From positions 150,433 through 214,432 of the forward strand of contig CAWVIZ010000009.1 of NCBI GenBank assembly GCA_963929535.1: 64,000 nucleotides of DNA. The letters are read 5' to 3'. Of this stretch, positions 13,633 through 63,060 are shown piece by piece. The stretch comes from an uncultured Lachnospiraceae bacterium (GTDB lineage: Bacteria; Bacillota; Clostridia; Lachnospirales; Lachnospiraceae). The notes below the pieces were generated by a model, which was not told where the DNA came from, made no database searches, and saw nothing but the letters and a program-made list of their open reading frames with translations. The number at the start of each line of letters is the position of its first letter. Positions within the stretch are counted from its first letter, which is position 1. The position numbers and the translations under genes are program-made.

Positions 13633-13640
13633 AAATACAG

Positions 13641-40003: not shown

Positions 40004-40311
40004 ATGTAATACCTCCCAAGTTTTAGTATGGCTATATTTTACTAAAACTTCATGAATATTTCAAGTAATTTATGGAATATTGACAATTATTTTCCCCAAC
40101 TTTTCCTTCTCATCTGGATAGATTGTGTATACTTTTCGTGAATATTAGATTTTTTTATTCAATTTCCCGGGATTTCTCTCTGTAATTCCCAAGACCGCCC
40201 ATCCCAGGACACCAGGTCTGCGCCCACAGTTTGCGGGCTCCCTCTGAACATGCGGCAGGACAGCGGAAGGAGGAACCGGCGGCTGCATTTTCACTTTAAA
40301 GTGTTAAATTA

Positions 40312-40340
40312 TTGACTTTTTTCCGGCGGTGCCTTACAAT
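40312..40340 (+). promoter_or_regulatory. Sigma-A-type promoter of the aromatic amino acid operon
   Basis: TTGACT (40312-40317) - 17 nt - TACAAT (40335-40340). Confidence 0.6.
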
Positions 40341-40388
40341 GAAAAAGCCAAAACAGTTATATCACCCAAAAGAATAGAGGAAAAGCAA

Positions 40389-42508: not shown

Positions 42509-42519
42509 GGAGGTACAAA

Positions 42520-43815: not shown

Positions 43816-43941
43816 AGGCCGGTCCTTTCCGGCAGTCAAAAATCCCGCAACATACCGGATCAATCTCTGGTATGCCGTGGGATTTTCTTATTTCATGGGG
43901 AAGGGCGTTTCCGCAGGAATCCCATCAGACGGACTTCCGTC

Positions 43942-44592: not shown

Positions 44593-44607
44593 AACATCCC
44601 TCTTTCT

Positions 44608-47025: not shown

Positions 47026-47040
47026 AATATCTGTTTCCTC

Positions 47041-48072
47041 CTAGAACTGTTTTAAGAACCGGTAATCATTCTCATACAAAAGCCGCATATCATCAATCTC
47101 ATATTTCAGCAGCGCAATACGCTCCAGGCCCACACCGAAGGCAAAGCCCGTATACTGTTCCGGATCAATGCCGCACATCTCCAGCACATGGGGATGCACC
47201 ATTCCGCAGCCCAGGATTTCGATCCAGCCGCTGCCCTTACAGAAACGGCAGCCCTTGCCTCCGCACTTAAAGCAGGATACATCCATCTCCGCGCTGGGCT
47301 CTGTGAACGGGAAATGATGAGGACGGAACTTGGTCTTCGTCTCCGGCCCGAACAGCTCCTTGGCAAATACCTCCAGGGTTCCCTTCAGATCCGCAAATGT
47401 GATATGCTTGTCGACCACCAGTCCCTCAATCTGATGGAAGGAGGGAGAATGGGTAGCGTCCACCTCATCGGAACGGAACACCCGCCCAGGGGCGATCATG
47501 CGGATAGGCAGTTTGCCCTGCTCCATCACACGGGCCTGCACCGGGGATGTCTGGGTTCTCAGCACGATCTCTTTGTTGATGTAGAAGGTATCCTGCTCAT
47601 CCTTAGCCGGATGGTCCGCCGGAATGTTCAGCTTCTCAAAATTATACAGATCATACTCCACCTCCGGACCTTCCACCACTTCATAACCCATGCCGATGAA
47701 GATCCGCTCTACTTCCTCCAGGGCTATGGTATTGGGATGCCGGTGTCCCACATTGGCCTTTCTGGCCGGCAGAGTCACATCGATCACCTCGGAAGCCAGC
47801 TGTGCTTCCCTCAGTTCCTTTTCCAGACGGCTCCTGGTCTCCTCCAGCATAGACTCGATCCTGGCTCTGGTTTCATTCACCATCTGTCCTACCCTGGGAC
47901 GCTCCTCGGCAGCCACATTTTTCATTCCTTTCAGAACTGCGGTAAGCTGTCCCTTCTTTCCCAGGAAGTTCACTCTCACATCATTCAGCTTATCCAGAGC
48001 GTCTGATTTTTCAATTTTGTCCGACGCATCCGCAAGAATCGCCTGCAGCGTCTCTTTCATACTATTGCTCAT
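47041..48072 (-). CDS. pheS: Phenylalanine--tRNA ligase alpha subunit
   Basis: Class II motifs ([31 protein letters not shown]). The start at MSNSMKE (48072) is behind AAGGAG; the upstream extension is unsupported. Confidence 0.95.
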
Positions 48073-48210
48073 GACCAATCTCCTTTTCTTTTCTGTATGC
48101 TGTAAGCCCGCGGTCCGATCTTGGTTTCCCTTCGGTCGGCGCATAACAGACATCCGCCGGACATCCTGCGCCCCTGCAAAGCGTTTTTATTTCATGGGAA
48201 CGCATTTCCT

Positions 48211-48278
48211 GTCAAATACCCCGCAGCAAGCTACGGGGTATCATACTTGCAGCGCAGCAGAGCTGCGGGGTATTTGAC
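48211..48278 (-). repeat. 17-bp perfect inverted repeat with a third 12-mer copy, inside the pheS leader
   Basis: GTCAAATACCCCGCAGC (48211-48227) and GCTGCGGGGTATTTGAC (48262-48278) are separated by a 34-nt spacer. An extra GCTACGGGGTAT at 48230-48241 allows alternative pairings. Confidence 0.8.
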
Positions 48279-48339
48279 CCTCGCGGCAGTCGCCAAATGG
48301 ACATGCAAGCATGTCCGCTTGGCTCGTTGCCCGCGGGAA

Positions 48340-48585
48340 TAAAAAAATCCCGCCCCCAAAGGGACGAGATAAACTCGCGGTACCACCCTGATTCCCGGAA
48401 CCTATGTCCCGGACACTCCGGCAGACTTAACGCGTCCTCACGTCTTTCCCTACTTCCATTCAGGAAAGAAGCTCCGGTGGGAACCTCAAGATATGCCTGA
48501 ACTTAAAAGGGCTTTCAGCCGGTGACCCCTTCTCTCTGAAAGAAAACATATCTCTACTGACACCTTCACAGCATTTTTCTGTCTT
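48340..48585 (-). promoter_or_regulatory. T-box leader of pheST
   Basis: On the minus strand: stem I region CAGAGAGAAGGGGUCACCGGCUGAAAGCCC, a UUC-containing candidate specifier region, T-box core GGGUGGUACCGCG (48376-48388), and a terminator stem 48348-48367 followed by U7 (48340-48347). Confidence 0.85.
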
Positions 48586-48590
48586 TTCTT

Positions 48591-48619
48591 ATTCTAGCCA
48601 TAATCGTCTGCGCTGTCAA
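48591..48619 (-). promoter_or_regulatory. Sigma-A-type promoter of the pheST leader
   Basis: On the minus strand, TTGACA (48619-48614) - 17 nt - TAGAAT (48596-48591). Confidence 0.65.
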
Positions 48620-48655
48620 GCTCTTTTTTCGCCGTACAGGCGTCCGCATAATGGT

Positions 48656-49570
48656 TCAGCCGTCCTTTTCGTCTTCCCGCCCTTCCCGGAGTCCCTCCAC
48701 AAATTCCCGGTATTCCATCCGGAGCCTTTCACTGGCCATCTGCTGCAGCCTCCGGAACCGTTCCTCAAAGTAGGCATTGATCTCCGCGCCGATGAGTACG
48801 ATATACATGCAGAAATACATCCAAAGCAGTACCATCACCATAGCCGTCAGGCTTCCGTACATACTGGACAGTCCGTGAAACACATCCAGATAAATGGAAA
48901 ATCCCAGCGAAAATAAAGACCAAGCCACCGCCGATATCACCGCCCCCGGAAGCTGGCTGCGCAGACTGGCTTTCCGGTTTGGCAGGAACTTATAGATCAG
49001 AAGGAACACAATGCACAGCAATCCCAAAGAAACTGCAGTCCTCATCCCGATGATGTAAGCCGCGATCCGTCCCAGCATGGGGATATACCTTTCCAGAAGC
49101 TTCTGGATACTGTTTCCAAATACCAGAAACAGCAGACTTCCCGCCACTGCCACCAGAAAGATCAGCGTATAAAAGGCAGAGCGTATCCGCATTACCAGGT
49201 AATTCCTGGTCTCCTCCACATGATAGATGGCATTCACCCCGTTGGTCAGCGCCTGGATCCCCTTCCCCGCACTCCACAGAGCAAAAATTGCGGAAACAGG
49301 CACCACAGCCGCAGATTTTGTAAATACCTCCCGGATGATCTGCAGTACAAAGCGTTGAAAATCTCCGCTGTCCGGCACCAGCCGGAGAAACAGTTCCGTT
49401 ACATTCTCCTGAGTCACCCACGGGATATGCTGCACCAGCGTTGTCAGAAGAATAATGAACGGGACAAAGGAGAGCAAAATAAAATAAGAGGCCTGAGCGG
49501 CAAACGCTCCCACATGGTCCGTCTTCAGCCTGGTCAGGAACCCTCTGATGATCTTAATATATCCTGTCAT
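48656..49570 (-). CDS. YihY/BrkB family membrane protein
   Basis: 304 aa, about 6 TM segments, and a YihY-like N-terminus (DHVGAFAAQASYFILLSFVPF). Confidence 0.8.
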   Translation of the reverse strand: MTGYIKIIRGFLTRLKTDHVGAFAAQASYFILLSFVPFIILLTTLVQHIPWVTQENVTELFLRLVPDSGDFQRFVLQIIREVFTKSAAVVPVSAIFALWSAGKGIQALTNGVNAIYHVEETRNYLVMRIRSAFYTLIFLVAVAGSLLFLVFGNSIQKLLERYIPMLGRIAAYIIGMRTAVSLGLLCIVFLLIYKFLPNRKASLRSQLPGAVISAVAWSLFSLGFSIYLDVFHGLSSMYGSLTAMVMVLLWMYFCMYIVLIGAEINAYFEERFRRLQQMASERLRMEYREFVEGLREGREDEKDG

Positions 49571-49723
49571 TCCATTTTCCTTCCCGTCATCCTTTCGTTA
49601 GATGCATCATATCAATTTTTTCCGGATCTTGCAAGAAGGAATCCCCGGACCGCATCCCCAGGGCGGGCATCCCCGCAATGCCGGCGCTAAGCGTGCGCCG
49701 CCGGCCCACGGTGTTCTTCCAGG

Positions 49724-49737
49724 GTAACAGTTCAGCC
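49724..49737 (-). repeat. Partial (half) copy of the hairpin repeat family
   Basis: GTAACAGTTCAGCC is identical to the corresponding 14 nt of copy B. The second hairpin arm is missing. Confidence 0.5.
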
Positions 49738-49760
49738 TTATGGATTGCTCCTCTTCCGGC

Positions 49761-51320
49761 TCAATCACAGGAAAACTGGATATTCTGATAGAAGACCTCC
49801 AGGATCTCCTCCCAGCTTTTTCCCGCCTGTGCCAGAGCTTTGGCTCCGTTCTGGCTCATACCCACCCCATGGCCATAGCCCCCGCCCTGAAAGGAATATC
49901 CCGTAAGCGTTTCTCCCTCATAAACCGGATCACAGAAAAAATAAGCGCTGGGAAGGATTTCCATAGACGTACTCTCCGACCCGTCATTGCACCGGACCGG
50001 AATATCCCCGGGAGATAAAAACTCCCGGATGGCATATTCATCATCCAAAATATGGCTTCCCGCATTCCCCGTGATCTCCAGCTTTGTTACTGCGCCTCCG
50101 CCGGAACGCTCCAGCACGGAAAGGGCTGTCAGCCCACCGATCTCCGGGCACGTCCTGTCCGCTGCCTCCTGCAGCCAGGAAAGAGGAAGCGTCACCTGCC
50201 ACCGGTACCATACATCTTCCTTTTCAAAGTCCTCCTCCTGGATCTGCGAGATAAAATCCCGAAAATCCTTCTCCTGTGACAGACCGCCTCCCACAGCGGC
50301 AGTCTCCAGCGCCTCTGGCTCCACAGCCTGCCGGGCCACCTCCACACTCCTCAGATACGGCGAAGCGCTTTCCGCTCCCCATACCTCATCGGTGCTTGTA
50401 TGGCCGCAGGAGGTGGAAAAAAAATAGGCCTGGATCGGCTGTCCCTGGTATGTCATGATAACACCCCTGGTACTGTCCACCGCCTCATCCGCCGCTTCCT
50501 GCCGTCCAATATTGTTATATACCTGAAAAGACACGCTGTCATCCACATCCGCCCCATACCCGGTGAGTCTCCTTTCCTGCATCTGCCTGACCGCATACGT
50601 TCTGGCACAGACTGCCTGGGCCCTCAGCGCTTCCTGAGGGTATTCCGCCGGCATCTCGCTGGGGACCACATATTTCAGATAGGTCTCCAGGTCCACCTGA
50701 TTCCGGATCAGAAAGCTTCCTCCCCGGTTGATCACCGTCAGCGTCCCCTGATAGGCAGGTATCCCCTGACTGCGCTCCAGAGACAAAAGGGAAATCCTTC
50801 CCTCTTCCTGCTCCACAGTAATCCTGGCGCTCTGCCCTTCGTCCAGCAGAGCAGATATTTCCAGGGGTTCACCGGCAGGGACTTCCATCTGCACATCTCC
50901 CGTCACCTGCAGCGGAACATTTCCCTGCACCTTCACTGATCTATGCTCATATGACTGAAAACCTTCGTCCATCAGCAGAACCTTCACCTGACCGGGAACC
51001 TGATATCCGCCGCTGACTTCCGCTGCGCGCTCCGAACCGCCTCCGGTTTCTGCTGTCTTCTCTTCCTGTTCTCCCTCTTTCCCGGTCCTGCCATCTTCCC
51101 GGCCGCCGTCCGCAGCATCCGACACTCCCATGCTGTCTCCTGCTTCACCAGTGTTTTCTCCCGCTGCAGCCTGTTCCCGGACAAGCTCCCGGTAAAACCG
51201 TTCCCTCAGCGAGCTTTCTTTCTCCCCGTAGAACACCATCAGCCCGGTCACTGCCAGAAACGCAGCGGTCATACACCAGCCAAACCATTTTCCGCTTTTG
51301 AAAAAATCCTTCATATCCAT
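49761..51320 (-). CDS. spoIID: SpoIID/LytB domain protein (stage II sporulation protein D-like lytic transglycosylase)
   Basis: C-terminal motifs CDPVYEGETLTGYSFQGGGYGHGVGMSQNGAKALA, an N-terminal TM anchor, and an acidic/Gly-rich linker. Confidence 0.8.
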   Translation of the reverse strand: MDMKDFFKSGKWFGWCMTAAFLAVTGLMVFYGEKESSLRERFYRELVREQAAAGENTGEAGDSMGVSDAADGGREDGRTGKEGEQEEKTAETGGGSERAAEVSGGYQVPGQVKVLLMDEGFQSYEHRSVKVQGNVPLQVTGDVQMEVPAGEPLEISALLDEGQSARITVEQEEGRISLLSLERSQGIPAYQGTLTVINRGGSFLIRNQVDLETYLKYVVPSEMPAEYPQEALRAQAVCARTYAVRQMQERRLTGYGADVDDSVSFQVYNNIGRQEAADEAVDSTRGVIMTYQGQPIQAYFFSTSCGHTSTDEVWGAESASPYLRSVEVARQAVEPEALETAAVGGGLSQEKDFRDFISQIQEEDFEKEDVWYRWQVTLPLSWLQEAADRTCPEIGGLTALSVLERSGGGAVTKLEITGNAGSHILDDEYAIREFLSPGDIPVRCNDGSESTSMEILPSAYFFCDPVYEGETLTGYSFQGGGYGHGVGMSQNGAKALAQAGKSWEEILEVFYQNIQFSCD

Positions 51321-51415
51321 AGTCTAGTATATGGATTTTCCCAAAAAACATACCCGCTTTCCCCCTGCAGTGAAAACGGGTATGCCAAATCCCAGATCAG
51401 TCCTTTTCCGATATC

Positions 51416-52465
51416 CTACTTAACGGAAAATCTGTAAACAGTTTTTGTATCGTACTTTTCCTGGGCTTTTAAAAACGGATGCTCAAAGTTGGGATCGTTC
51501 ACCGAATTGGGGAAAAACTGAGATTCCAGGCAGAAGCCCTGGCGTTTCTCATAGATCACGCCCTCCTTGCCCTTTAGTCCGTCGATAAAATTTCCGGTAT
51601 AGAACTGAACACCCGGACAGTCTGTAAGCGCTTCCAGACAGATCCCGCTCTCCCGGCTGTAAGCCCGGGCCATCCACTCCACACCATTTCCGGAACGATC
51701 CAGCACAAAATTGTGATCGTATCCTCCAGTCATCTGCAGCTGCGCGAAATCCCCGTCAATCTCTTCTCCGATCACCTTGGGTTCTCTGAAATCCATGGGA
51801 GTTCCCGCCACATCCGCCAGCTCTCCGGTAGGAATGGACTTGGAATCGATCACAGGTGTATAGCGTGACGCATTCAGCTGCATCAGCTGGCCGCAGACGC
51901 TGCCGGAAGCATGTCCCGACAGATTAAAGTAACTGTGGTTTGTCATATTGGCAACTGTATCCTGGTCGCAGCTCCCCTGGTAATGGATCTCAACAGCGTT
52001 CTCATCCGTCAGAGTATATGTAACCGTCACATCAAACGTTCCCGGGAATCCCTGCTCTCCATCCGGGCTTATCCGGTGAAATGCCACGCTGTTTTCCCCC
52101 GGACAGGCCTCCCACATCATATTATCGTATCCCATCGGACCGCTGTGAAGATTATTCTCGTTTTCATTCGGTGTCAGCTGAACCTTCTTTCCATTCAGCA
52201 TAAAGGACGCCTGATCGATCCGATTGCCGTTCCGTCCAATGGTCGCGCCGAAATGAGGGGTGTTCCTGGTCTCATAATCCTCACCGCTGTCAAATCCCAG
52301 CACCACATCTGTCAGTTTCCCTGCCCGGTCCGGCACCAGCACACTCACCAGAATCGCGCCAAAATCCGTCACCTTCATCACAGCGCCCTTTTCATTGGTC
52401 ACCGTATACAGAGAAATTTCCTGTCCCTCTTTTGTCTTTCCAAAGTTCTGTCTCGCTACACTCAT
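51416..52465 (-). CDS. galM: Aldose 1-epimerase (galactose mutarotase)
   Basis: Motifs NLHSG, NMTNHSYFNL, FCLESQ. The start at MSVARQ is behind GGAGAA. Confidence 0.9.
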   Translation of the reverse strand: MSVARQNFGKTKEGQEISLYTVTNEKGAVMKVTDFGAILVSVLVPDRAGKLTDVVLGFDSGEDYETRNTPHFGATIGRNGNRIDQASFMLNGKKVQLTPNENENNLHSGPMGYDNMMWEACPGENSVAFHRISPDGEQGFPGTFDVTVTYTLTDENAVEIHYQGSCDQDTVANMTNHSYFNLSGHASGSVCGQLMQLNASRYTPVIDSKSIPTGELADVAGTPMDFREPKVIGEEIDGDFAQLQMTGGYDHNFVLDRSGNGVEWMARAYSRESGICLEALTDCPGVQFYTGNFIDGLKGKEGVIYEKRQGFCLESQFFPNSVNDPNFEHPFLKAQEKYDTKTVYRFSVK

Positions 52466-52832
52466 CCTGTTCTCCTTCTGCCATCTGTTTCCTGGCCGGA
52501 ATCCCCCTCCCGCTTTCTGCGGCACACTTCTTACGGGAAATCCCTCTGCAGCCGTTCAGTTTTCTGCTTTGCTCTATAAACCTGAGCCGCCGCACTCCCA
52601 CATAGTTTTAAAGAGAGCCATTTGCATGACTCTCTCCTTATCCTTCGTAAAACCCGGAGTGCCGTTTCCCTTATTTTGACGCCTAGCCGAAGCCAGGTGG
52701 GCGACCGCAGTATCTCTTCTGTCTTCCGCTGCGTAATGGCGGCCTGACATCCAATCAACAATATAGGAATCCCATAAACGTAAATGTAGGTTCAAAATTA
52801 AGAGAGGGTCGCACACCCCAGGCATTACTTAC
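52466..52832 (-). ncRNA. Long structured 5' leader of galM or an independent ncRNA (class not recognised)
   Basis: It lies downstream of a near-consensus promoter. Domain 1 is closed by GCCUGGGGUGUGCGACC (52823-52807) pairing with GGUCGCCCACCUGGC (52706-52692). Domain 2 (52662-52592) has three nested helices: GCACUCC/GGGAGUGC, GUUUUA/UAAAAC, AGAGAGUC/GGCUCUCU. Confidence 0.45.
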
Positions 52833-52839
52833 TGTGTAT

Positions 52840-52868
52840 ATTATACATGAATCCTATTCGCTTTTCAA
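52840..52868 (-). promoter_or_regulatory. Near-consensus sigma-A promoter
   Basis: On the minus strand, TTGAAA (52868-52863) - 17 nt - TATAAT (52845-52840). Confidence 0.65.
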
Positions 52869-52980
52869 GCCAAAAAGGAATCCTGCGGATTCCTTTTTCT
52901 GACACCGGCAGCAAACTTCTGACAAATCCGCCAAATCCCGTCTGGTCTTTTCCAAAAGCAGCCGGGAAGCATACAGAAAT

Positions 52981-54474
52981 TTACCGGATCCCTAGAATCT
53001 GTCTCACGATCGCAGACATCTGGGATACCTCCACAGTGGTGTTATGAAGGACCGGGGCTGTGCGGATCTCCCTGACAGCCTTTGGTGTCCTGACGCCGGA
53101 AACCTGCTCCAGCTCATCCACAAGCTGAAAATCGTCCAGCCCTTCACAGGTTCTTTCGCCGATAGCCTCCATCACGCTTCTGGCAAACTTATAAGGGCTT
53201 GCCGTGGAAGCGATCACCGTTTTCGTCTCATCTCCGGTATCTCTCCGATATTTTTCATATACCGCAGCGGCCACAGACGTATGGGTATCGATCACATAAC
53301 CGCAGTTCCGGTAAATCCTCCGGATCATCTGCGCCGTCTCTTCCTCCGATGCGTAATTCCCATAGAAATCCTTCAGATTCTCCCGCATCTCATCCGTGAT
53401 CTCATATACACCGCCAGATGCCAGCGCTTCCATCATCCTGCGGTTCTTGTCCGCATCTTCCCCGCAGATCCGGTAAATCAGCCTCTCCAGATTGCTGGAG
53501 ATCAAAATATCCATCGACGGCGATGTGGTAAGGATAAACTCCCGGTTCCTGTCGTATCTTCCCGTGGAAAAGAAATCATAAAGCACCTTATTCTCATTGG
53601 AAGCACAGATCAGCCTGTTGATGGGAAGCCCCATGTTCTTGGCGTAATAGGCCGCCAGAATATTTCCAAAATTTCCGGTGGGAACCACCACATTGATCTT
53701 CTCGCCTTCGTCCAGCTCGCCCTTTTCAAACATCCTGGCATAGGCATACACATAATATACGATCTGGGGAACCAGCCGGCCAATATTGATGGAATTCGCA
53801 GAGGAGAACTGATAACCCGCCTTATCAAGCTCCGCTTTCATCTCCTCATCACCAAAAATTCTCTTTACGCCGGTCTGCGCATCGTCAAAATTCCCCCGGA
53901 TAGACACCACATACGTATTCTTTCCCTGCTGGGTTACCATCTGCCGCTCCTGAATGGCGCTGACACCATCTTTGGGATAAAAGACAATGATCTTTGTCCC
54001 CGGCACATCAGCAAAACCAGCCATGGCCGCCTTCCCCGTATCACCGGAGGTGGCTGTCAGAATCACGATCTCATTCTTTACCTGGTTTTTCTTTGCTGCT
54101 GTGGTAAGCAGATAAGGAAGGACAGACAGCGCCATATCCTTAAAAGCAATGGTGCTTCCATGGAACAGTTCCAGGTACCAGGCGCCCTCTGCCTTTTTCA
54201 GCGGCGCGATCTCCTCCGTATCGAACTTGGAATCATATGCCCGTTCAATACAGTCTCTCAGCTCTTCCTCTGTAAAATCCGAAAGGAAACGGCTCATAAC
54301 CTGGTAAGCCACCTCCTGATATGACATTCCTGCCAGCTTCTCCACCGGAATGTCAAGCCTCGGGATCTGCGTGGGAACAAACAATCCTCCGTCTTCCGAC
54401 AACCCCTTCAGGATCGCCTGGGATGCAGTTACCGTATCGTTGTTTCCTCTGGTACTTCTGTATAATACTTCCAT
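52981..54474 (-). CDS. thrC: Threonine synthase
   Basis: N-terminus YRSTRGN and the PLP lysine region FHGSTIAFKDMAL. The start at MEVLYRS is behind AGGAGAGG. Confidence 0.92.
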   Translation of the reverse strand: MEVLYRSTRGNNDTVTASQAILKGLSEDGGLFVPTQIPRLDIPVEKLAGMSYQEVAYQVMSRFLSDFTEEELRDCIERAYDSKFDTEEIAPLKKAEGAWYLELFHGSTIAFKDMALSVLPYLLTTAAKKNQVKNEIVILTATSGDTGKAAMAGFADVPGTKIIVFYPKDGVSAIQERQMVTQQGKNTYVVSIRGNFDDAQTGVKRIFGDEEMKAELDKAGYQFSSANSINIGRLVPQIVYYVYAYARMFEKGELDEGEKINVVVPTGNFGNILAAYYAKNMGLPINRLICASNENKVLYDFFSTGRYDRNREFILTTSPSMDILISSNLERLIYRICGEDADKNRRMMEALASGGVYEITDEMRENLKDFYGNYASEEETAQMIRRIYRNCGYVIDTHTSVAAAVYEKYRRDTGDETKTVIASTASPYKFARSVMEAIGERTCEGLDDFQLVDELEQVSGVRTPKAVREIRTAPVLHNTTVEVSQMSAIVRQILGIR

Positions 54475-54586
54475 GGATCTTAACCTCTCCTGCATTTTTC
54501 ACTTTTGCGTTGTAAATCGCTGTAGTTTCTGATTATAGCACAGCTCCGATCCACTGACAAGGGCAGGTTTGGGATGACTTTCCCGT

Positions 54587-55423
54587 TCATCCGTAAAAAC
54601 TGTGACCGCCATGGTCGAACAGATGCGTCAGCGTTTTGTCGAACCACTCGATATTTTCTGCATCAGCCTGGTCTTTGGCGATAAAATACAGGGCTCCCTG
54701 GGAAAGATCCTCCCCGTCAATGGCCCGGTTCACCGCTTCTCTTGTGGTATTGGAGATCGTCACAGAATGAATCCTTCCGTCCTCTGTAGGAGAAAACTGC
54801 GCCGATCCCCCTACTTTCTGCCAGATCACAGAAGTCACATCCCCGGGGAACTCTTCATCCGCCACCCGGTTCAGTATCACATTCGCCACCATGATCCGCC
54901 CTTCCACATCCTCGCCTCCTGCTTCCGCCTCCACGATCGCCAGCAGATTCTCATAATCCTTATCCGTCATGCTGGTGGTGGAAGCCAGGCTCCAGGACTG
55001 ATTGTCCAGTTCGTTCACCGTCTGTAGCAGTTCCGATCCCACATCCAGGCGGGATACCACTTCTCTCGTAATTTTTCTTTGCCCTACCAGCACCACTTCA
55101 CAGCTGGTTCCCATGGCCCGGTAATCCGTTGTCAGCCCCTTGGTGGACAGCACGCCTTCAATCAGGCCTGCATACCCAAGGGGCACCTGTTCATCAGGAT
55201 CTCCCTCTTCCTCTCCGGTATCCTCCTGGCCGCTTCCGCCTCCGGCGTCCGCTTCCCGGGCATCCGGAGCTGTCCGGATACGAGTGCTGCAGACTACCGC
55301 TGCGCTTCCAGCCAGGACCACCACTGCGGCTCCCGCCGCTGCAGCACAGGCTTTTTTCTTATGTCTGGTTACCCGGGTCACGAGAGCCTGGACAAACTTC
55401 CATATGATATTCAGCTTCTCCAT
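54587..55423 (-). CDS. Cell wall hydrolase, SleB-like (Hydrolase_2 domain) with N-terminal membrane anchor
   Basis: The C-terminal domain LLAIVEAEAGGEDVEGRIMVANVILNRV...AQFSP is typical of SleB/CwlJ-type spore cortex lytic enzymes. Confidence 0.8.
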   Translation of the reverse strand: MEKLNIIWKFVQALVTRVTRHKKKACAAAAGAAVVVLAGSAAVVCSTRIRTAPDAREADAGGGSGQEDTGEEEGDPDEQVPLGYAGLIEGVLSTKGLTTDYRAMGTSCEVVLVGQRKITREVVSRLDVGSELLQTVNELDNQSWSLASTTSMTDKDYENLLAIVEAEAGGEDVEGRIMVANVILNRVADEEFPGDVTSVIWQKVGGSAQFSPTEDGRIHSVTISNTTREAVNRAIDGEDLSQGALYFIAKDQADAENIEWFDKTLTHLFDHGGHSFYG

Positions 55424-55644
55424 CTCGCTTCCTTTGCTTTCCCTAATATCCTTTTTCTCTAAAAATCCACTTGTAATGAATTATAGGTACTTCAAAAGGC
55501 AAAGTCAATAGATGGGCCCCATTTTGGGCTAATTTCACGAATTATCCTCCACTTTTTCATGAAAAATGCCCCCTTTTCGGGGTAAGCTTCACCACTTTTT
55601 TACTTTTTTCTTTCCTGAATTTTATGAAACAGTGCTATTGCCTT

Positions 55645-55806
55645 TTATCTTCCGGATGTGAGATCCGCGGCTTCCCGAGGCATTCCAACGCTGGAAAACA
55701 GAATATCCAGCGGAACATCCGCGCCCGCCGTTTCACCGGGCCGGAACCTGCAGCCGCACAGCAGCAGACATCCGCACAACCCCGCTGCTTTTTCCCAATA
55801 CTTCAT
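55645..55806 (-). CDS. Possible small lipoprotein (53 aa)
   Basis: MKYWEKAAGLCGCLLLCGC has a lipobox-like L-C-G-C, with GAGGGGTGG upstream. It is very short and has no family assignment. Confidence 0.3.
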   Translation of the reverse strand: MKYWEKAAGLCGCLLLCGCRFRPGETAGADVPLDILFSSVGMPREAADLTSGR

Positions 55807-55828
55807 TTTACCACCCCTCGTCCTTCTT

Positions 55829-56092
55829 CTACATCCCGATGAAATAGTATCCAACAGCAGCTCCCAGCGCCACAAATACAGCGATCATCAGACAGGCCGG
55901 CCAAAAAAATTTCCCCATTTGTTCTTTTAAAGATTTTTTGCCGCTCAGCCGGTCCATGGCAAATTTGGCCATCAACACTTCATTATGGTCAAGCCCGGTG
56001 GTACTGTCCCCATCCATATCCGGAACCCACATGGAAGCATTCTTATTTTCCTTCACGCCGCTCACCTCTCTTTCCTTCTCCATTTTTGCCAT
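55829..56092 (-). CDS. Possible small C-terminally anchored membrane protein
   Basis: Hydrophobic C-terminus FFWPACLMIAVFVALGAAVGYYFIGM. The start is uncertain (56092 or 56083). The longer 141-aa ORF in the track is unsupported. Confidence 0.3.
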   Translation of the reverse strand: MAKMEKEREVSGVKENKNASMWVPDMDGDSTTGLDHNEVLMAKFAMDRLSGKKSLKEQMGKFFWPACLMIAVFVALGAAVGYYFIGM

Positions 56093-56487
56093 TCCCCTTA
56101 CTTTCCGCTGTAAACATACGGGGCCGTCTATCAGACAGCCCCAAAACATTCCAGCAAATATATTGTTCTCTTTTTCTGCTATAACATGTATCATCATTTC
56201 TGCGCAATTTCGTTCTGTTATCTGTATATTATGATATACCCTTCTATTTGTCAATGAATATCCTCTTTTTTGGAATGGTATATGTTGTTGATTTCTTAAA
56301 ATAGCATATTTATGATCTACTTGCCTGTCAGCGGATTGCTCTGTATACTGTCATAAGACTACAGAAAGAAAAAGTCTCAGAGCACCCTCCCTGGAAAGTC
56401 GTGTACTCTGAGACCCGGTTATAAAAACCATGGTTATTATATCAGAATACACACTGACCTACAAGGCGGACTCCGGTGTTTTTTGTT

Positions 56488-56976
56488 ATGAGCAGTGATG
56501 ACACCCCTGTCTGCCCCGTCTGTGGCGGTACTTTGAAGTATCGCGATACCAGACTACGTATCCGGAAGAAGGAAGGCGGCGTGAAAGAGTATCTTATGAT
56601 CCGCAGGCTCCGCTGTACGGAATGCCACCGACATCACAACGAGCTTCCTGATTGCCTTGTACCCCACAAGCATTATGAAGCCGAGGTGATCTCCGGCGTG
56701 CTCGACGGGATCGTAACATCGGAGGATGCTGATTCGGAAGACTCTCCTTCCCTGCTGACCATGTTACGATGGCTCCAGTGGTTTCGGATGAACCTCGCAA
56801 ATATTGAAGGATTCCTGCGCAATGCCGGATACCGGATACTTGGATTGGGAGAAGAACTTCTTTTCTCCCATGCGTCACTGCTCGATACCATACGCCAAAC
56901 ACATCAGGACTGGCTGGAGCGTATCCTCCGTATCATCTACAACAGCGGCGGCTTTTTACCTGCTGTACCATGGTGA
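56488..56976 (+). CDS. Zinc-ribbon protein resembling the DUF6431 family (transposon-associated)
   Basis: Motifs CPVCGG...RRLRCTECHRHHNELPDCLVPHKHY. From memory, this family commonly precedes rve/Mu-type transposases in Clostridia. Confidence 0.6.
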   Translation: MSSDDTPVCPVCGGTLKYRDTRLRIRKKEGGVKEYLMIRRLRCTECHRHHNELPDCLVPHKHYEAEVISGVLDGIVTSEDADSEDSPSLLTMLRWLQWFRMNLANIEGFLRNAGYRILGLGEELLFSHASLLDTIRQTHQDWLERILRIIYNSGGFLPAVPW

Positions 56977-57050
56977 TGCTATTGCACCTGTTTTGATTCG
57001 TCTGTCACCGGATCAGCAGGTATAGTGGTCTCAGAAGGAGGTCACTATAT

Positions 57051-57872
57051 ATGAATACCAATACAAACAGAATCAAACAATGGCAGGAACAGGAAGCCCT
57101 TTCCCGATTCCAGCTGATTGCGCCGCTGCTTCAGGAAGATCTGGACGATGCAAAGAGGCTGCAGCTCCGGAAACAGATTGCTCAGGACAATGATATTTCC
57201 GTCCGGTCCATCTACCGCTATGAAAAGGCCTACCGTGAAGGACAGTTTGCCGGCTTAAAACCAGCCGCACGCGAAAAACGCCGTTCACAGAAGCTTCCGG
57301 AAAACTTTGATCTTCTGCTTGAGCAGGCGGTCCAGCTCCGTAAAGAAGTCCCGGAGCGGTCTGTCGCACAGATCATCTGCATCCTGGAACTGGAAGGCTA
57401 TGCTGCACCGGGAGTCCTGAAACGCTCCACTCTGGAACGGCACCTATACCGGGCTGGTTACGGAAGGGAACAGATGCAGATGTACCGCGATGCACGGGGA
57501 AGTTCTTCCAAACGTTTCTGCAAACCGCACCGTATGATGCTGGTACAGGGGGATATCAAGTACGGCCCGAAACTTCCGATTGGGAAAAATGGTGCCAGAG
57601 TACAGACGTATCTTTCCTCCGCAATCGATGACCATTCCCGCCTACTGTTGGCTTCCCGTTTCTATGACAGCCAGGAGGAAGCCATTGTTGAGGATACGTT
57701 CCGCCAGGCGATCCTCCGATACGGAAAGTTTGATGCCTGCTACTTTGATAACGGTTCCCAGTATATCGCCAGACAGATCAGGCTCTCTCTTTCAAGACTG
57801 GGGATCCGGGTCCTCCATGCAAAACCGCGGAGCGGCAAAAGCAAAGGTTATGTAAAGACTTCATTTATGTAA
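57051..57872 (+). pseudogene. DDE (rve) transposase with Mu-transposase C-terminal domain, 5' fragment interrupted by the trio-recombinase element
   Basis: N-terminal HTH, with DDE residues in MLVQGDIKYG and YFDNGSQY. The native sequence ends at ...RSGKSKG (57847). The frame then runs 24 nt into the inverted repeat and stops. Confidence 0.85.
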
Positions 57873-57931
57873 AGAAATGTGGGCTCAGCCCAGTGCTTAC
57901 ACGGAACTGAGCTTAAATTTCTTTACATAAA
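57848..57931. repeat. Left 84-bp terminal inverted repeat of the trio-recombinase element
   Basis: 83/84 identical to the reverse complement of 61227-61310; the single mismatch is 57896 versus 61262. It contains TTATGTAAAG at 57848 and 57865 and CTTTACATAA at 57921. Confidence 0.95.
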
Positions 57932-57932
57932 T

Positions 57933-58958
57933 TTACCGCTTATTAAAGCTTTTGAGCCATTCTTTCAGATTGGTATCAGATTCCCATTTTGCTTCTTCTT
58001 TTGGAAGGATTTCTTTGCTTGCAGCTTCGATTGCTTTTCTTTTCAGTTTCGCATCCGTTCTTGCGTAGATTTCGGTAGTCATAACGCTGGAATGTCCGAG
58101 CAGATCCCTTATATACATCAGATCAACTCCTGATGTAATGAGCTCCATCGCAGCAGTATGCCGCATTTTGTGTGCTGTGAGGTCATCTGGTATCAGTGTT
58201 GGCTCTTTCTGTCTGGCTTTCATCCCATATTTCTTCAGCACATAATTGACACCTTGTCTTGTAAACTGTGAATTCATATGACTTTTGAAAAGATATTCCT
58301 CAAAGCGTGCCTCGGTATCATATTTCATACAGGAGATATATTTCTGTATGTGTGGAACAGCCGTTTTCATCAGTGGGACATACCTGCCTTTATTCCCTTT
58401 GCCGTGGATCCTTATAGTGTACGGCTCAGTCAGTGAAATGTCCTTTACTTTTATATTTATCAGTTCTGACACACGTACGCCGGTTGTATAAAGGAGCAGT
58501 AACATTACATAATCTCTCAAGCCATTCGTGGCATTCATGTCTATCTGACCGACTAAAAGTTCAACGCCTTCCGTCTTCATGTAGGAAATCTCTTTTTGTT
58601 CTGTTTTTTTTAACGGGATCCCGAGTATCCGCTGGTATTCCTCCATGTAATCCGGCAGTTCATATTTTAGGTAATGAACAAATCCCTTCATTGCGGCAAG
58701 TCTGTAATTACGTGTGGCCGGGCTGTTTTTTCTGCATTCCTCAAGCCATTTCAGAAAGCCAAGTATGGATTCCCTTGTATAATCCATGACAGATATCTTT
58801 TCAGGCTTTATTCCGCATATGGATTCCATGTATTCGAGGTAAAGAACAAAAGCATTCCTATAAGTATCTATGGTTTGGGGAGAACTGCCATTTTCATTCG
58901 GAAGATAACGGGTAAAATATCTGCTAAGATGTACTGCAAAATCAGTTGTTTTCATCAT
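57933..58958 (-). CDS. Tyrosine recombinase (third of trio, XerD-like)
   Basis: Catalytic signatures TTGVRVSE, HKMRHTAAME, LGHSSVMTTEIYAR. The start is ambiguous (58964 GTG, 58958 or 58955 ATG). It overlaps the upstream ORF. Confidence 0.88.
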   Translation of the reverse strand: MMKTTDFAVHLSRYFTRYLPNENGSSPQTIDTYRNAFVLYLEYMESICGIKPEKISVMDYTRESILGFLKWLEECRKNSPATRNYRLAAMKGFVHYLKYELPDYMEEYQRILGIPLKKTEQKEISYMKTEGVELLVGQIDMNATNGLRDYVMLLLLYTTGVRVSELINIKVKDISLTEPYTIRIHGKGNKGRYVPLMKTAVPHIQKYISCMKYDTEARFEEYLFKSHMNSQFTRQGVNYVLKKYGMKARQKEPTLIPDDLTAHKMRHTAAMELITSGVDLMYIRDLLGHSSVMTTEIYARTDAKLKRKAIEAASKEILPKEEAKWESDTNLKEWLKSFNKR

Positions 58959-59928
58959 CAGCACCTTCTTTCGTTATCTTACCAAATATCCTGTCAACCG
59001 TGGAATGAAATTTTTCCTCGATGTAAGGGAAAAGCTGCAAGGTCAGCCTTACATACTTTTCCGTGGCAAAAATTGTTTTGTGACCTAAATAAGTTGACAG
59101 TATAGGCAGCGCAACATACATATCCAGCCCGGAATCCGTCATCTGCTTAAAGGAATATACAGCCATATGGTGTCTCCAGTCATGGATTCTTGGCCCATTG
59201 CCATCCCCTATGTAGGGAATACCGGCTCGGAACAGAAAGTCCCGATGCTTTTCGTAAATGCTTTTCTGATCAAGTCTGCCTCCATTTGCATTCGTAAAAA
59301 TGTAATCGGTATCATTCAGAAGGTAAAAGCATTTGTCTGCGTATTCATTTAAAAGAGCCTTGAGATCATCCCCCACAACAACATAGCGCTGTTTATCGTT
59401 TTTTGTCTCATTCAGAAGGAGGATACCTTTATCAAGATCCACATCCTTCTTACGGATTCCGAGAGTTTCATTAATTCTGGTTCCACAGCAGTAAAGGATT
59501 CGGAACAGTACAGGGTATTGGATGGCGTCTTTACGGTTCATTCCGCTTGTATAACTGTCAACTGCCATGAAATATCGTTCAGATTCGGCATCTGTATAAA
59601 TATGTGGCTCAAAATCTGTCCCTTTGTATTTTATATCGCGTACTACAAAAACATCATAACCTTTTATGCTCAGGTATTTCAGAAACTGTTTGCTGGAATT
59701 TATCCTTAAATAATGCGTTGTGTGGGACTCGTTCTTTCGCTGCTCAAGCCATCTGGATGCATGGAAGGTGCTAAATACTGGCTCCATTATCCTCTGTTCT
59801 ACGCAGAAACGGTCAAATCCTATGAGGTTGCGTCTGAAGTTGTCACCATCAAAGCCAGCTTCTGTTTTATCATTTATATAGTTTTTGATTTCATCTGCGA
59901 AAACAGATCTAAACTCATATCTTGCCAT
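58942..59928 (-). CDS. Tyrosine recombinase (second of trio)
   Basis: Signatures CCGTRINE, HDWRHHMAV, LGHKTIFATEKYVR. The ATG at 59928 is behind AAGGAGGG and overlaps the upstream ORF by 14 nt. Confidence 0.88.
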   Translation of the reverse strand: MARYEFRSVFADEIKNYINDKTEAGFDGDNFRRNLIGFDRFCVEQRIMEPVFSTFHASRWLEQRKNESHTTHYLRINSSKQFLKYLSIKGYDVFVVRDIKYKGTDFEPHIYTDAESERYFMAVDSYTSGMNRKDAIQYPVLFRILYCCGTRINETLGIRKKDVDLDKGILLLNETKNDKQRYVVVGDDLKALLNEYADKCFYLLNDTDYIFTNANGGRLDQKSIYEKHRDFLFRAGIPYIGDGNGPRIHDWRHHMAVYSFKQMTDSGLDMYVALPILSTYLGHKTIFATEKYVRLTLQLFPYIEEKFHSTVDRIFGKITKEGADDENN

Positions 59929-61171
59929 ATCTGCCCTCCTTGCTGTAGAATGGAGAGCGAAGCACAGGCATTGGAAGGGCACACTGTTTCAGCTTATCAT
60001 AGTCTACGGATATATAATAACCCGTGGTCGCTGTCCGTTGATGCCCCATAACAGTGCTTATGACCGGCATGGCGACATTCTTTTTCAGGAGGTTTGTCGC
60101 CAGGCTGTGTCGCATGGCATGGGGCCCATGCTTCTTATTCTGCCAGTTTTTTATTCCGGCGCGCTTCATATACTTGGTAACAACGGAATGGATTGTCGGG
60201 GAAGACAAGGGCTTTCCTTTATTGACATTCTCCATGGATACAATGATCTCCGGAGCATCTGTGGCAGGTCTTGCATGTTTCAGATAATCTATGATCGCAT
60301 TCCCTACTGTAGCCAAAAGAGGGAACTCTACCGATACATCCGTTTTATGTTGGACGAAATGTATGACATTCTTATCCCAGTCAATGTCATCAAAAGAAAA
60401 ACGGGTGATATCTTTTGCACGCCATCCGTATTCTGTAGCGAGAAGCAGGATCAGATAGTCTCTTTTCCCGATAGGTGATGCTCTTTCTACAGAAGCGATC
60501 AATTCCCTGATTTCATCTTCTTCATATGTTGTTGGCAGTTTGCAATCCTTCTTATAGTTATCAGGAAGGATAAAAACAGAGCAATCTTTTGATGATGTTC
60601 CTTCATCATAAACGAATTGAAGGAAAAGTTTTATGGTGCGCGCGGCATTATGTCTTGAGGCAAGGGAATAATTCATGGATGAAAAGAAACATTCTGTTTT
60701 TTCAATCGAAAGATCTTCATATTTCATCCCTTTCCCGTTCATGAACCTGCAGAAGTTATACAGATATACCCTTTTATTTTCAATTGTTTTCTCTGCAAGC
60801 ATAAGTTCATCCCTACAATAATCCAGATATCTTAATGCTGCCAAACCAATCTCTCCATGAAAAGTATATTCAACACTTGGGCAGCGAAATTCAAAATCGC
60901 CATTCCGCTGGTAAGAGATCAACATGCGGACAGCACGCAGTTTTTCCCTAAAATGAGCAGGCGCGCGTTTTGGCATGAGATGCGTGCCAAATATCTCATC
61001 GCAGTATTGCTTGCCGATGGCTTCACTGAATTCAGAAATCTCTTTGCTTTTCAGCCATTCCCGTAAGGCATTCCACTGTGCGGTTATCCTTACATAATAA
61101 TTCGACTCGTATTCCCTATGCTGCAATTCTTCATCACATAAGGCAACCAGTTCTTCAAAATTTGTTACCAT
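59915..61171 (-). CDS. Tyrosine recombinase (first and largest of trio, 418 aa)
   Basis: Signatures YGWRAKD, HAMRHSLAT, MGHQRTATTGYYI, with a long N-terminal SAM-like/arm-type extension. AAGGAGG ribosome-binding site. Confidence 0.88.
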   Translation of the reverse strand: MVTNFEELVALCDEELQHREYESNYYVRITAQWNALREWLKSKEISEFSEAIGKQYCDEIFGTHLMPKRAPAHFREKLRAVRMLISYQRNGDFEFRCPSVEYTFHGEIGLAALRYLDYCRDELMLAEKTIENKRVYLYNFCRFMNGKGMKYEDLSIEKTECFFSSMNYSLASRHNAARTIKLFLQFVYDEGTSSKDCSVFILPDNYKKDCKLPTTYEEDEIRELIASVERASPIGKRDYLILLLATEYGWRAKDITRFSFDDIDWDKNVIHFVQHKTDVSVEFPLLATVGNAIIDYLKHARPATDAPEIIVSMENVNKGKPLSSPTIHSVVTKYMKRAGIKNWQNKKHGPHAMRHSLATNLLKKNVAMPVISTVMGHQRTATTGYYISVDYDKLKQCALPMPVLRSPFYSKEGRYGKI

Positions 61172-61226
61172 ATTTATCGGTACCTCCTTGAAATAGTTTG
61201 GATAAATATGGTCTCATATTTGTTTT

Positions 61227-61310
61227 TTTATGTAAAGAAATTTAAGCTCAGTTCCGTGTAAACACTGGGCTGAGCCCACATTTCTTTACATAAATGAAGT
61301 CTTTACATAA
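61227..61310. repeat. Right 84-bp terminal inverted repeat of the trio-recombinase element
   Basis: Reverse complement of 57848-57931 with one mismatch. Confidence 0.95.
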
Positions 61311-61342
61311 CCTTTATTATGTAAAGATTTACATAATAAAGG
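61311..61342. repeat. Orphan palindrome carrying two more TTATGTAAA sites, flanked by CCTTT/AAAGG
   Basis: CCTTTATTATGTAAA-GA-TTTACATAATAAAGG has 15-nt perfect arms. It sits between IR-R and the resumption of the transposase frame. Confidence 0.9.
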
Positions 61343-61961
61343 GAAGATTGAAAAGTTCCATCAGGTAGTGGATATGTTTAACCGGGAGGCAAAACTAAAA
61401 AACATCAAAACTCTGGAAGAGCTGAACCGGCTGTGGGCCGTGTTCCTTGATGCGTACTATCATCAAAAGCCCCATGAAGGGATCAGCGAATACTACGAAA
61501 GCCTTGGTGCGGCAGTCCCGGAATCAGGGATCACTCCCCTTCAGGAATGGAACCGTGACAGCCGTCCCCTGACCTATCTGGATGTCTCTGTTGTATCCGA
61601 AGCATTTCTGCACCATGAGACACGTAAAGTGGACAAGGGCGCCTGTATCAGTTTCAGGGGCAGAAAGTATGAAACGAAACCGGCTCTGATCGGATATAAG
61701 GTTGAGATCTCCTATGATCCTGCAGCTCCCGAAACCATTACGGTAAGTTATCCGGGATACGAGCCGTTTCCCACACAGCCGGTCAGGATTGGCGAGTTCT
61801 GTGATAAGAACCCAACACTTCCTGCTGCGATGCAGGAACAGACTCCGACAACCTCGCGCTTCCTTGATGCGCTGGAAAAGAAACATTCGGAATCGACCCG
61901 CCAGATGGCCGATGCAATCTCCTTTGCTTCCTATCGGAAGGAGGTGGATGATCATGTATGA
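61341..61961 (+). pseudogene. DDE transposase, 3' fragment (catalytic E region and Mu-transposase C-terminal domain)
   Basis: The frame resumes GKIEKFHQVVDMFNRE..., later RKVDKGACISFRGRKYE. Deleting 57848-61342 (3495 bp) rejoins it in frame with 57051-57847. Confidence 0.85.
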
Positions 61962-62772
61962 ATCCTTCTTTGGAATGGAGCATACACCCTTTGTCCGTGA
62001 TATCCCAGCTGAGAAACTCTATGAGTCTGATGCATTCCGGGAAACGCTCGGCAGGCTCTGCTATGTAGCAGACCGGCAGATGTTTGCGGTCGTAACAGCA
62101 GATCCCGGCTGTGGAAAATCCACGCTGATCCGCAGGTTTTATTCGGAACTTCCGAGGGAAGAATATATCATCCTGTATCTTTCCGATTCCAAGCTGACTC
62201 CGCGGTGGTTTTATAAGGGGATGCTGGACCAGCTGGGGCTGGAAGCACGGTTCTACCGCGGCGATTCCAAACGTCAGCTCCAACAGCAGATCGAGATCAT
62301 CCATGGTGTCCAGCATAAAAAAGTGGTATGCGTTTTGGATGAGGCACACCTGCTGGAGAAAGAAACACTGGAAGAATTCCGTTTCCTTCTAAACTACAGG
62401 TTCGATTCTGTAAGTCCCATGGCTGTCGTGCTCGTAGGGCAGACAGAACTGTGGGACAACAAGCTGAAACTTCAACGGTACGCGGCGATCCGCCAGCGGA
62501 TCGATATGTACTGTACACTCCCGCATCTGGACCGGGCAGAGACAGAACAGTATGTCAAAAGCCATATGGATTATGCGGAATGCAGCCAGGAGATCTTTAC
62601 AACCAAAGCAATGGACGAGATCCATAAAGCTTCGGCCGGGATTCCGAGAATGGTCAACCGGGTGTGCGAAAAATCGCTTATGTATGCGTTCCAACAGCAA
62701 AAACGGCTGATCGATGATTACATGATCAAGTATGTAGTGGAACACGAAATGCTTGGAACCGTAACCGGATAG
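61954..62772 (+). CDS. AAA ATPase, transposition helper (ExeA/TniB/MuB-like)
   Basis: Walker A ADPGCGKST and Walker B VCVLDEAHLL. The ATG at 61954 overlaps the transposase stop, which is the typical coupling. Confidence 0.85.
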   Translation: MYESFFGMEHTPFVRDIPAEKLYESDAFRETLGRLCYVADRQMFAVVTADPGCGKSTLIRRFYSELPREEYIILYLSDSKLTPRWFYKGMLDQLGLEARFYRGDSKRQLQQQIEIIHGVQHKKVVCVLDEAHLLEKETLEEFRFLLNYRFDSVSPMAVVLVGQTELWDNKLKLQRYAAIRQRIDMYCTLPHLDRAETEQYVKSHMDYAECSQEIFTTKAMDEIHKASAGIPRMVNRVCEKSLMYAFQQQKRLIDDYMIKYVVEHEMLGTVTG

Positions 62773-62779
62773 AGAAGGT

Positions 62780-62800
62780 GCCGTCCGGAATCCGGACGGC
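62780..62800 (+). terminator. Perfect stem-loop after the ATPase gene
   Basis: GCCGTCCGGA-A-TCCGGACGGC. There is no U-tract. Confidence 0.45.
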
Positions 62801-63060
62801 CCATACATCAACCATCACGGTGACAGTAAACTTAGCAGTTTAAAGACAACTCATGAAAGCAGTCTGGTGACAGCTCATGAAATCAGCAACAGGTATATAG
62901 CAGTTCAGCTGTCCAGATCTCCACGCAGCAGAACCTATTCCTCCTTATCCTTGTGCATTCCGGGTTGAATTATGAGAATGAAGTACACAAAAGCAGTATT
63001 TTACCTGGCATCACAAGAAATGTTGCTGTAAATTTCAAAGCACCCTATAATAATGCAGAT

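Follow-up and report, generated by a model that had tools for sequence, protein, structure and literature searches.

RIT (recombinase-in-trio) elements are defined by the fixed gene order RitA-RitB-RitC (PMC3414803, PMC8138268). The ritABC trio is known from Cupriavidus metallidurans CH34, from pHG1, and from sphingomonad and rhizobial plasmids (Van Houdt 2009/2012, PMC3414803, PMC2864759). The papers covered here (PMC10214605, PMC5737581, PMC3414803, PMC2864759) describe terminal repeats as the only sites on these elements, with published lengths of 34 bp or 47–51 bp (PMC10214605, PMC5737581, PMC3414803). Movement, mechanism and target choice are called untested in the same literature (PMC10214605, PMC5737581, PMC3414803), and the reason for using three recombinases to cut four strands has been called unclear (PMC3414803). 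RitA is known to comprise two successive core-binding domains (PMC8138268).

The window analyzed here is a 64-kb stretch of DNA taken from a 230-kb contig of a 98.8%-complete assembly. Its bases 57848–61342 (3495 bp) are one copy of a RIT element. The mobile unit consists of a 3463-bp body with 84-bp inverted repeats, a 6-bp spacer, a 20-bp palindrome termed here the orphan, and a second 6-bp spacer. As in the described RIT elements, three adjacent tyrosine recombinase genes lie on one strand between terminal inverted repeats, the size is about 3.5 kb without cargo, and the insertion splits a gene; the CH34 copies split radC and an IS66 tnpA (PMC2864759). The copy in the window differs by belonging to a gut lineage of the Bacillota and by a RitA that is 25–30% identical to proteobacterial RitA. 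The RIT literature covered (PMC10214605, PMC5737581, PMC3414803) makes no mention of an additional back-to-back 9-mer pair, of three hexamers or of a rule as to the side on which the pair is carried. The orphan and the second core site that it appears to help form are apparently an undescribed yet general part of a known type of element. The features of the locus are as follows.

57051–57847, plus strand: TL, the 5' part of the transposase gene (Pfam rve), ending ...AGC AAA GG
57842–57847, plus strand: left junction hexamer oL, CAAAGG, the same as the empty-site hexamer
57848–57931, plus strand: ritC-side terminal inverted repeat, with A1 at 57848–57858 (TTATGTAAAGA), A2 at 57865–57878 and inverted A3 at 57917–57930
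57933–58964, minus strand: ritC-type tyrosine recombinase, 343 aa (Pfam Phage_integrase 1.4e-35; matched best by the third gene in each of four other trios)
58942–59982, minus strand: ritB-type tyrosine recombinase, 346-aa ORF from GTG (Pfam 1.6e-19; best matches are second trio genes)
59915–61171, minus strand: ritA-type tyrosine recombinase, 418 aa (Pfam 3.7e-27; best matches are first trio genes)
61227–61310, plus strand: ritA-side terminal inverted repeat, with A3 at 61228–61236, inverted A2 at 61285–61293 and inverted A1 at 61300–61310 (TCTTTACATAA)
61300–61327, no strand: putative internal core-type site TCTTTACATAA-CCTTTA-TTATGTAAAGA, 11-6-11 (arms 61297–61310 and 61317–61330)
61311–61316, plus strand: internal hexamer oI', CCTTTA (reverse complement TAAAGG), which varies among 99.9%-identical copies
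61317–61336, no strand: orphan 9-mer pair TTATGTAAA-GA-TTTACATAA, part of the mobile unit
61337–61342, plus strand: right junction hexamer oR, TAAAGG, the first base T being foreign to the target
61343–61961, plus strand: TR, the 3' part of the transposase gene, starting G AAG ATT GAA; the GAA at 61350–61352 would encode the catalytic Glu

The body encodes RitA, RitB and RitC between the 84-bp inverted repeats. The three ORFs overlap, all lie on the minus strand and all match Pfam Phage_integrase, the matches to the catalytic domain being near full-length. The catalytic HxxR...H...Y is present in all three C-terminal stretches (HAMRH..GHQ..Y, HDWRH..GHK..Y and HKMRH..GHS..Y). The true start of ritB may lie downstream of the GTG. 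The RitA catalytic domain occupies residues 217–391 of 418, and the N-terminal part of about 210 residues leaves room for two core-binding domains. By blastp, the best match of each protein is its positional counterpart in four other trios, namely those of Novosphingobium pLA4, a Sagittula plasmid, a Ralstonia replicon and a Bacteroides finegoldii plasmid. The presence of three different recombinases, proposed in an initial annotation made from the letters of the window, is borne out by Pfam and blastp as distinct RitA, RitB and RitC subfamilies. The Rit proteins score highest against Xer models, yet under the cut-offs of these models. The element is present in a single copy in its own genome (blastn), and no DNA match to it was found in 60 relatives or in the plasmid collection. 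In other assemblies, RIT bodies that are 99.88–99.94% identical stand at no fewer than five distinct sites; the recurrence of identical copies at more than one site was reportedly read by Ricker in 2013 as a sign of mobility.

The element splits a transposase gene with rve and Mu-transpos_C domains, which is followed by an AAA_22 ATPase gene (Pfam). When 57051–57847 is joined to 61343–61961, a 471-aa open frame is restored that is 99% identical to an intact protein (P0001); the cluster of this intact 471-aa transposase has 1493 members. In four contigs coding the intact transposase, the empty site reads ...GCGGCAAAAGCAAAGG/GAAGATTGAAAAG..., where the slash marks the junction (GCAAAGG/GAAGATT), and contains no palindrome. 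Since the empty sites lack the palindrome, the insert extends over the whole of 57848–61342 and the orphan is not target DNA. The initial annotation had asked whether the orphan and AAAGG belong to the element or to the target; with no counterpart in four uninterrupted target genes, the orphan falls to the element. The target sequence around the insertion point is AGCAAAGG/GAAGATTGAA. The insertion lies within the Gly codon of S-K-G^K-I-E, three codons upstream of a Glu that sits 36 residues past the D of DNG. By this spacing, and by what is generally known of rve transposases, this Glu would be the catalytic one in the DDE triad. The target transposon has no further copy in its own genome by blastn. 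The host transposon (window 56325–62891; L057–L060) consists of a DUF6431 gene, the rve/Mu-C transposase gene and the AAA_22 ATPase gene. It is very common in gut metagenomes, where the members with an intact transposase are mostly found on contigs of about 3 kb, as is typical of a multicopy repeat.

The 64-kb window contains exactly eight copies of the 9-mer TTATGTAAA, where shuffled sequences give an expectation of 0.18 and a maximum of 1. All eight copies are confined to 57848–57930 and 61228–61336, the two ends of the 3.5-kb element, with four forward starts (57848, 57865, 61228 and 61317) and four reverse starts (57922, 61285, 61302 and 61328). The initial annotation had given the same tally, three of its reverse starts (57921, 61284 and 61301) each being one base low. 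The 10-mer TTATGTAAAG has 14 copies in the 3.49-Mb genome, half of them in the RIT element, and a scan with 10-mers found no second orphan palindrome in this whole genome. The terminal inverted repeat measures 89 nt with 99% identity (57843–57931 and 61227–61315) when AAAGG/CCTTT is included, and each copy encloses an imperfect inner palindrome with 33-nt arms (82%). AAAGG is found at 57843–57847 and 61338–61342, and CCTTT at 61311–61315. The running of the repeat into these pentamers, its internal palindromy and the places of the pentamers had all been reported in the initial annotation and were found again. The orphan palindrome, with the hexamers on its two sides, consists of 15+2+15 nt (61311–61325 and 61328–61342) and is 100% complementary. 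The sole mismatch between the two 89-nt repeats opposes 57893 to 61265, at the center of the inner palindrome (GTGCTTACAC versus GTGTTTACAC); sister copies, L005 among them, have T at this position at both ends.

Related copies were collected by RitA scans, which yielded 9 genome loci and 25 metagenome loci, and their layout was read in the orientation of the target gene where the junctions were readable. About 20 copies, with RitA 51–100% identical, have the uniform layout TL – 6 bp – inverted repeat, body, inverted repeat – 6 bp – orphan – 6 bp – TR. Metagenome contigs make up most of the relatives, so that a left and a right junction with a 3.5-kb repeat between them can have been joined chimerically; over the roughly 60 bp from the internal hexamer through the orphan and the right hexamer to TR, the linkage is safe from chimerism. 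Each of the 17 tabulated copies has its orphan on the side of TR, and partial contigs (L006, L013, L014/L028, L025, L041, L052) bring the number to about 20. If the two sides were equally likely, the chance of finding the same side 17 times would be about 2 × 0.5^17. The orphan is a conserved part of the mobile unit and travels with the element. The right end is asymmetric, as suspected in the initial annotation. Its att-like reading of AAAGG was near the mark. The orphan, however, is not the remnant of an earlier event at this locus, being present beside TR in every related copy and also in RIT elements of Proteobacteria and Bacteroides.

The orientation of the body is free. The rit genes are in the sense of the target gene in nine copies and antisense in eight, the central dinucleotide of the orphan is GA in 11 and TC in six, and all four combinations of body and orphan orientation are found. 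Even among 99.9%-identical copies, the body varies in its orientation relative to the target and the orphan.

Excision of the body, hexamer, orphan and hexamer restores open rve + Mu-transpos_C genes at six of seven other loci, and in the six restored transposases the junction reads K-[GAS]^K-x-E. Two copies sit elsewhere, one in a CdiA-CT RNase A domain gene (L022, 7849–7900) and one in a large surface-protein gene (L016, 3469–3520), where the local DNA mimics the K-x-K-x-E word. As these other genes offer look-alike DNA, the address of the element is a DNA word and not a gene. The consensus of 15 sites is NAARGS^NAARRTWGAR, the 3' half being better conserved; the right side of the target bears a weak likeness to the 9-mer, at most at about 6 of 10 positions.

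An alignment of related copies had been proposed in the initial annotation, which saw in the 9-mers a multi-site array of a trio element. In 28 ends from 14 elements, A1 (1–11), A2 (18–31) and the inverted A3 (~71–83) are fixed in place, in support of such an array, and they are nearly constant in sequence too, down to a RitA identity of 51%. From A2 to A3, a stretch of about 40 bp varies by lineage and, in some elements, between the two ends. RNAalifold pairs only invariant A2/A3 columns of the end repeats, with no compensatory change, and is silent on a hairpin either way.

The orphan, the 6-bp spacers and the 17-bp spacing from A1 to A2 recur in the trios of Novosphingobium, Sagittula, Ralstonia and Bacteroides. 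The Novosphingobium orphan is TTATGAGCAG/CTGCGCATAA, 6 bp beyond one repeat, and that of Sagittula is TTATGCGCAG/CTGCGCATAA. In Ralstonia it reads TTATGCCGT-CA-ACGGCATAA with hexamers TCGTGC/GCACGA/TCGTGC, and in Bacteroides TTATCAAAA-TC-TTTCGATAA with hexamers TATGGG/CCCATA. A second RIT family of the Lachnospiraceae, with RitA 31% identical, has a perfectly palindromic orphan, TTATGTAAAGCTTTACATAA; its insertions fall in P-loop ATPase genes, at the codons for the Walker-A motif GxGK[ST]. Copies of this second family (L051, L053 in G393, and L079 at G349:C59:14500–19760 with the orphan at ~2822–2841) lie after GG and before NAAGA. A perfect TTATGTAAAGCTTTACATAA palindrome at G304:C139:1775–1794 (L044/L055) has no recognizable end repeat beside it, and no RitA match was found in the genome at E ≤ 1e-10. 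This palindrome may have arisen by chance or may represent a solo orphan.

In the window, the right and internal hexamers are both TAAAGG, and the left hexamer is CAAAGG; the empty site has C at the sixth base from the junction. Of 16 copies, nine have the same hexamer on the left as on the right, and seven have two different ones. In L005, the left hexamer GAAGGC differs at three of six positions from CAAAGG, found on the right and internally; GAAGGC is the target's own, by homology with L009, and CAAAGG is the hexamer of the window's target. Bodies with 2–4 mismatches in 3463 bp stand at five sites or more (the window, L005, L006, L014/L028, L015, L016, L019), and the internal hexamers of such near-identical bodies are TAAAGG, CAAAGG, TATCGG and CAAAGC, a change far beyond the 0.1% divergence of the bodies. 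All hexamers resemble the K-G/A codons of targets. Because they differ between copies that are otherwise 99.9% identical, the hexamers are taken as exchanged segments; the sequences fit crossover segments that would be swapped by strand exchange, and not a duplication made by repair.

Tn916, CTnDOT and Tn554 move by conservative strand exchange over a 6-bp overlap that tolerates mismatches. As established for Tn916/Tn1545 and CTnDOT, and as cited for Tn554 (PMC10214605, PMC3414803), flanks of about 6 bp may mismatch and accompany the element from its old site to the next, with no true duplication, which is the likeness to the RIT hexamers. These elements differ in using one integrase (with Xis) or TnpA/TnpB/TnpC, and in having neither long inverted repeats nor a second internal core. 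The TnpC of Tn554 is not a recombinase, whereas all three RIT proteins are; membership of the Tn554 family was ruled out by the three recombinases and the long inverted repeats. SE elements and GInts (PMC10214605, PMC5385486) also use several tyrosine recombinases, are site-specific and have a joined form that holds 6 bp of flank. They differ by three integrase-like genes of other families plus a fourth gene, by large cargo, by the lack of terminal inverted repeats and by their restriction to Gammaproteobacteria and Proteobacteria.

At 61300–61327, perfect 11-bp inverted arms surround 6 bp, which is a dif-type geometry, with the spacer inverted relative to the junction hexamers. The 11-6-11 arrangement is present in all related copies, at the junctions too. 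Judged by this geometry, the A1 11-mer, the spacer and one half of the orphan appear to form a second complete dif-like crossover site that would be kept in the integrated copy. XerC/XerD at dif, and the IMEX elements that integrate there, use a core of like geometry, with 6 bp separating two 11-bp arms in inverted orientation. The putative internal core of the RIT element is inverted relative to both junction sites, each of which is half element and half target. The RIT arms differ in being identical, not XerC- and XerD-specific, and in that two cores stand back to back; the target is a coding word instead of dif, and three enzymes are encoded by the element. The reading judged likelier than its rivals taken together, with considerable room left for doubt, is that of a RIT copy in which the 9–11-mers are recombinase arms, the three hexamers are crossover segments and an internal core is present.

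Under this reading a cycle can be proposed, in which protein binding, cleavage positions, a joined-end intermediate and inversion are deduced from the arrangement of the sites. The Rit proteins would bind the 9–11-mers and cut at the hexamer edges. Recombination of the left junction with the right junction would join the ends, and the orphan would then lie between two mirror-image cores. Either core could cross over with the target word NAARGS^NAARRTWGAR; in the window's clade, this word would mostly be the part of rve-type transposase genes that encodes K-[GAS]-K-x-E and leads up to the catalytic Glu. An end-repeat arm would always join the 5' side of the target and an orphan arm the 3' side, so that both body orientations would arise with the orphan on a constant side. 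As 6-bp homology is proposed not to be required, the hexamers of the old target would be carried along. Recombination of the left junction with the internal core would flip the body in place, giving the remaining orientation classes and spreading the hexamers over the three positions. The three kinds of half-site (element arm, target left and target right) might explain the need for three enzymes, which is offered as a lead only. Since the two cores are 2 bp apart, their simultaneous occupancy may be blocked, a possible steric problem. The joined-end form (inverted repeat, 6 bp, orphan, 6 bp, inverted repeat) was found neither in about 80 loci, nor among the orphan matches of 400 family genomes, nor in viral contigs.

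Two unusual structures look as if the left junction of one copy had recombined with the internal core of a second copy. In L015 (106–3568, a metagenome contig), a body 99.88% identical to that of the window lies between the TL of the window's target and the inverted TL of the L005 target, with no orphan. It could be the product of recombination between copies, or an assembly chimera. In G349:C13 (a 116-kb contig; L054 covers 38000–56000, with the feature at 6047–14636), the order is TR' – orphan – IS91-like insertion – body – orphan – TR: the body has an orphan on each side and is flanked by the outward-pointing 3' halves of two transposase genes. At 7358–9900 of L054, an IS91-like Y2 transposase gene and a tyrosine recombinase gene lie between one orphan and its hexamer. 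The candidate solo orphan in G349:C13 was rejected, as this IS91-like element with its recombinase gene is what separates the orphan from a full RIT body.

A linear intermediate with hairpin or telomere-like ends is a live rival, as RIT DNA protected from exonuclease, without a circle junction, was reported in a study of the RIT mobilome that proposed hairpins (PMC5737581). The orphan would then be the opened or replicated tip of a hairpin, comparable to P-nucleotides or telomeres. This would account for a perfect palindrome with a 2-nt center. In the window and about half of the copies the palindromy is indeed perfect, hexamers included, and some lineages have a full palindrome in the central 6 bp (AAGCTT, CAGCTG). 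The hexamers flanking the orphan are nevertheless not mirror images in 10 of 17 copies, and in the window's clade the orphan center is GA/TC, which is not palindromic. The orphan 9-mers TTACGT[AT]AA also differ consistently from the end 9-mer in L021–L023, L030 and L032. As several lineages keep orphan 9-mers unlike their end 9-mers, the orphan is inherited and not remade at each move; remaking from the end 9-mer was ruled out by these lineages. The end hairpin is without covariation support. Searches of Pfam and NCBIfam found no telomere-resolvase domain in the Rit proteins, and this, with the non-mirror hexamers, speaks against a telomere-resolvase system. The hairpin intermediate is considered unlikely, though it deserves to be kept in mind.

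The orphan might instead serve solely as an inversion partner, flipping the rit operon relative to the promoter of the split gene as an on/off switch, without any role in insertion. The RIT body is seen either way round with respect to the target and the orphan, even at 99.9% identity, and the internal site is inverted relative to the left junction. The fim switch and the shufflons are likewise bounded by inverted sites of tyrosine recombinases; RIT elements differ from them in that target DNA makes up half of one site, and in that the unit as a whole can transpose. Inversion by itself leaves unexplained why the orphan is constantly carried to new sites on the TR side and why its outer hexamer joins the target, and the target-like internal hexamers require that the internal site act as a junction or exchange partner. 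A purely inverting role is therefore rated a little lower still, as rather improbable; it is largely compatible with the preferred reading of arms, crossover hexamers and an internal core, in which inversion would be one of the steps.

Tyrosine recombinases rejoin DNA without repair synthesis. They are the sole enzymes encoded by the element, which weighs against an ordinary target-site duplication, in which a staggered cut of 5–6 bp would be filled by repair, copying AAAGG, and the orphan would be a fixed extension of the right end. AAAGG does flank the insert in the window, and the left hexamer equals the right one in nine of 16 copies, as a true 6-bp duplication would give. The sixth base is however C on the left and in the empty site and T on the right, the hexamers are unequal in the other seven copies, by up to three of six positions, and a third, inverted hexamer inside the element changes between 99.9%-identical copies. 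The 5-bp duplication put forward in the initial annotation does not hold in this light, AAAGG being part of a 6-bp segment. The mismatch of CAAAGG with TAAAGG and the seven unequal pairs speak against a duplicating transposon of the repair type, and duplication is regarded as very improbable. That the palindrome is target DNA, pre-existing or a scar in the transposase gene, which attracted the element, has its position at the junction as sole support and is hardly credible at all, being already refuted by the four empty sites without palindrome: the palindrome is built of the 9-mers that also form the ends of the element and, across phyla, changes with the lineage of the element; the targets are different genes; and 400 family genomes gave no confirmed solo orphan, the L044 palindrome aside.

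To our knowledge, RIT elements occur in many phyla and their movement has never been reproduced in the laboratory. The window and its relatives now supply exact boundaries, an empty site and a fixed geometry (a 9-2-9 orphan, 6-bp spacers and 17 bp from A1 to A2). The sequences show directly where the element ends, what its empty site looks like, that the layout is conserved, that the orphan keeps to one side of the target and that the hexamers turn over; this side rule and the turnover, with the fixed geometry, make the preferred reading directly testable with designed substrates. A broader proposal is tentative and has somewhat less than even standing: all RIT elements would carry two dif-like cores around a 20-bp palindrome, one of them kept intact, the three enzymes would share out the half-sites, each lineage would home on a motif word, and the spacers would keep a record. 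If this is true, each lineage could home on a word of 10–16 bp that encodes, in an enzyme of some other mobile element, a motif that is conserved and often catalytic. Such words would be K-G-K-x-E of DDE transposases in the window's clade, the Walker-A GxGK[ST] in its sister clade and I-I-H of strawberry-notch helicases in Alphaproteobacteria. The 6-bp spacers, rewritten at each move, would form a readable record of past targets. The window's clade, which inserts just before the putative catalytic Glu codon of the transposases of other transposons, is on that account a parasite of mobile elements, and uses a conserved protein motif as a dependable DNA address.

Two alphaproteobacterial RIT elements, that of Novosphingobium pLA4 (L061, 4019–7846) and that of Sagittula (L066, 3513–7363), split a strawberry-notch helicase gene, whose two pieces carry separate annotations in L061. 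Almost the same word, GTGGATGATG(C/G)C, flanks both elements, which suggests that alphaproteobacterial RIT elements may use a target motif specific to their lineage.
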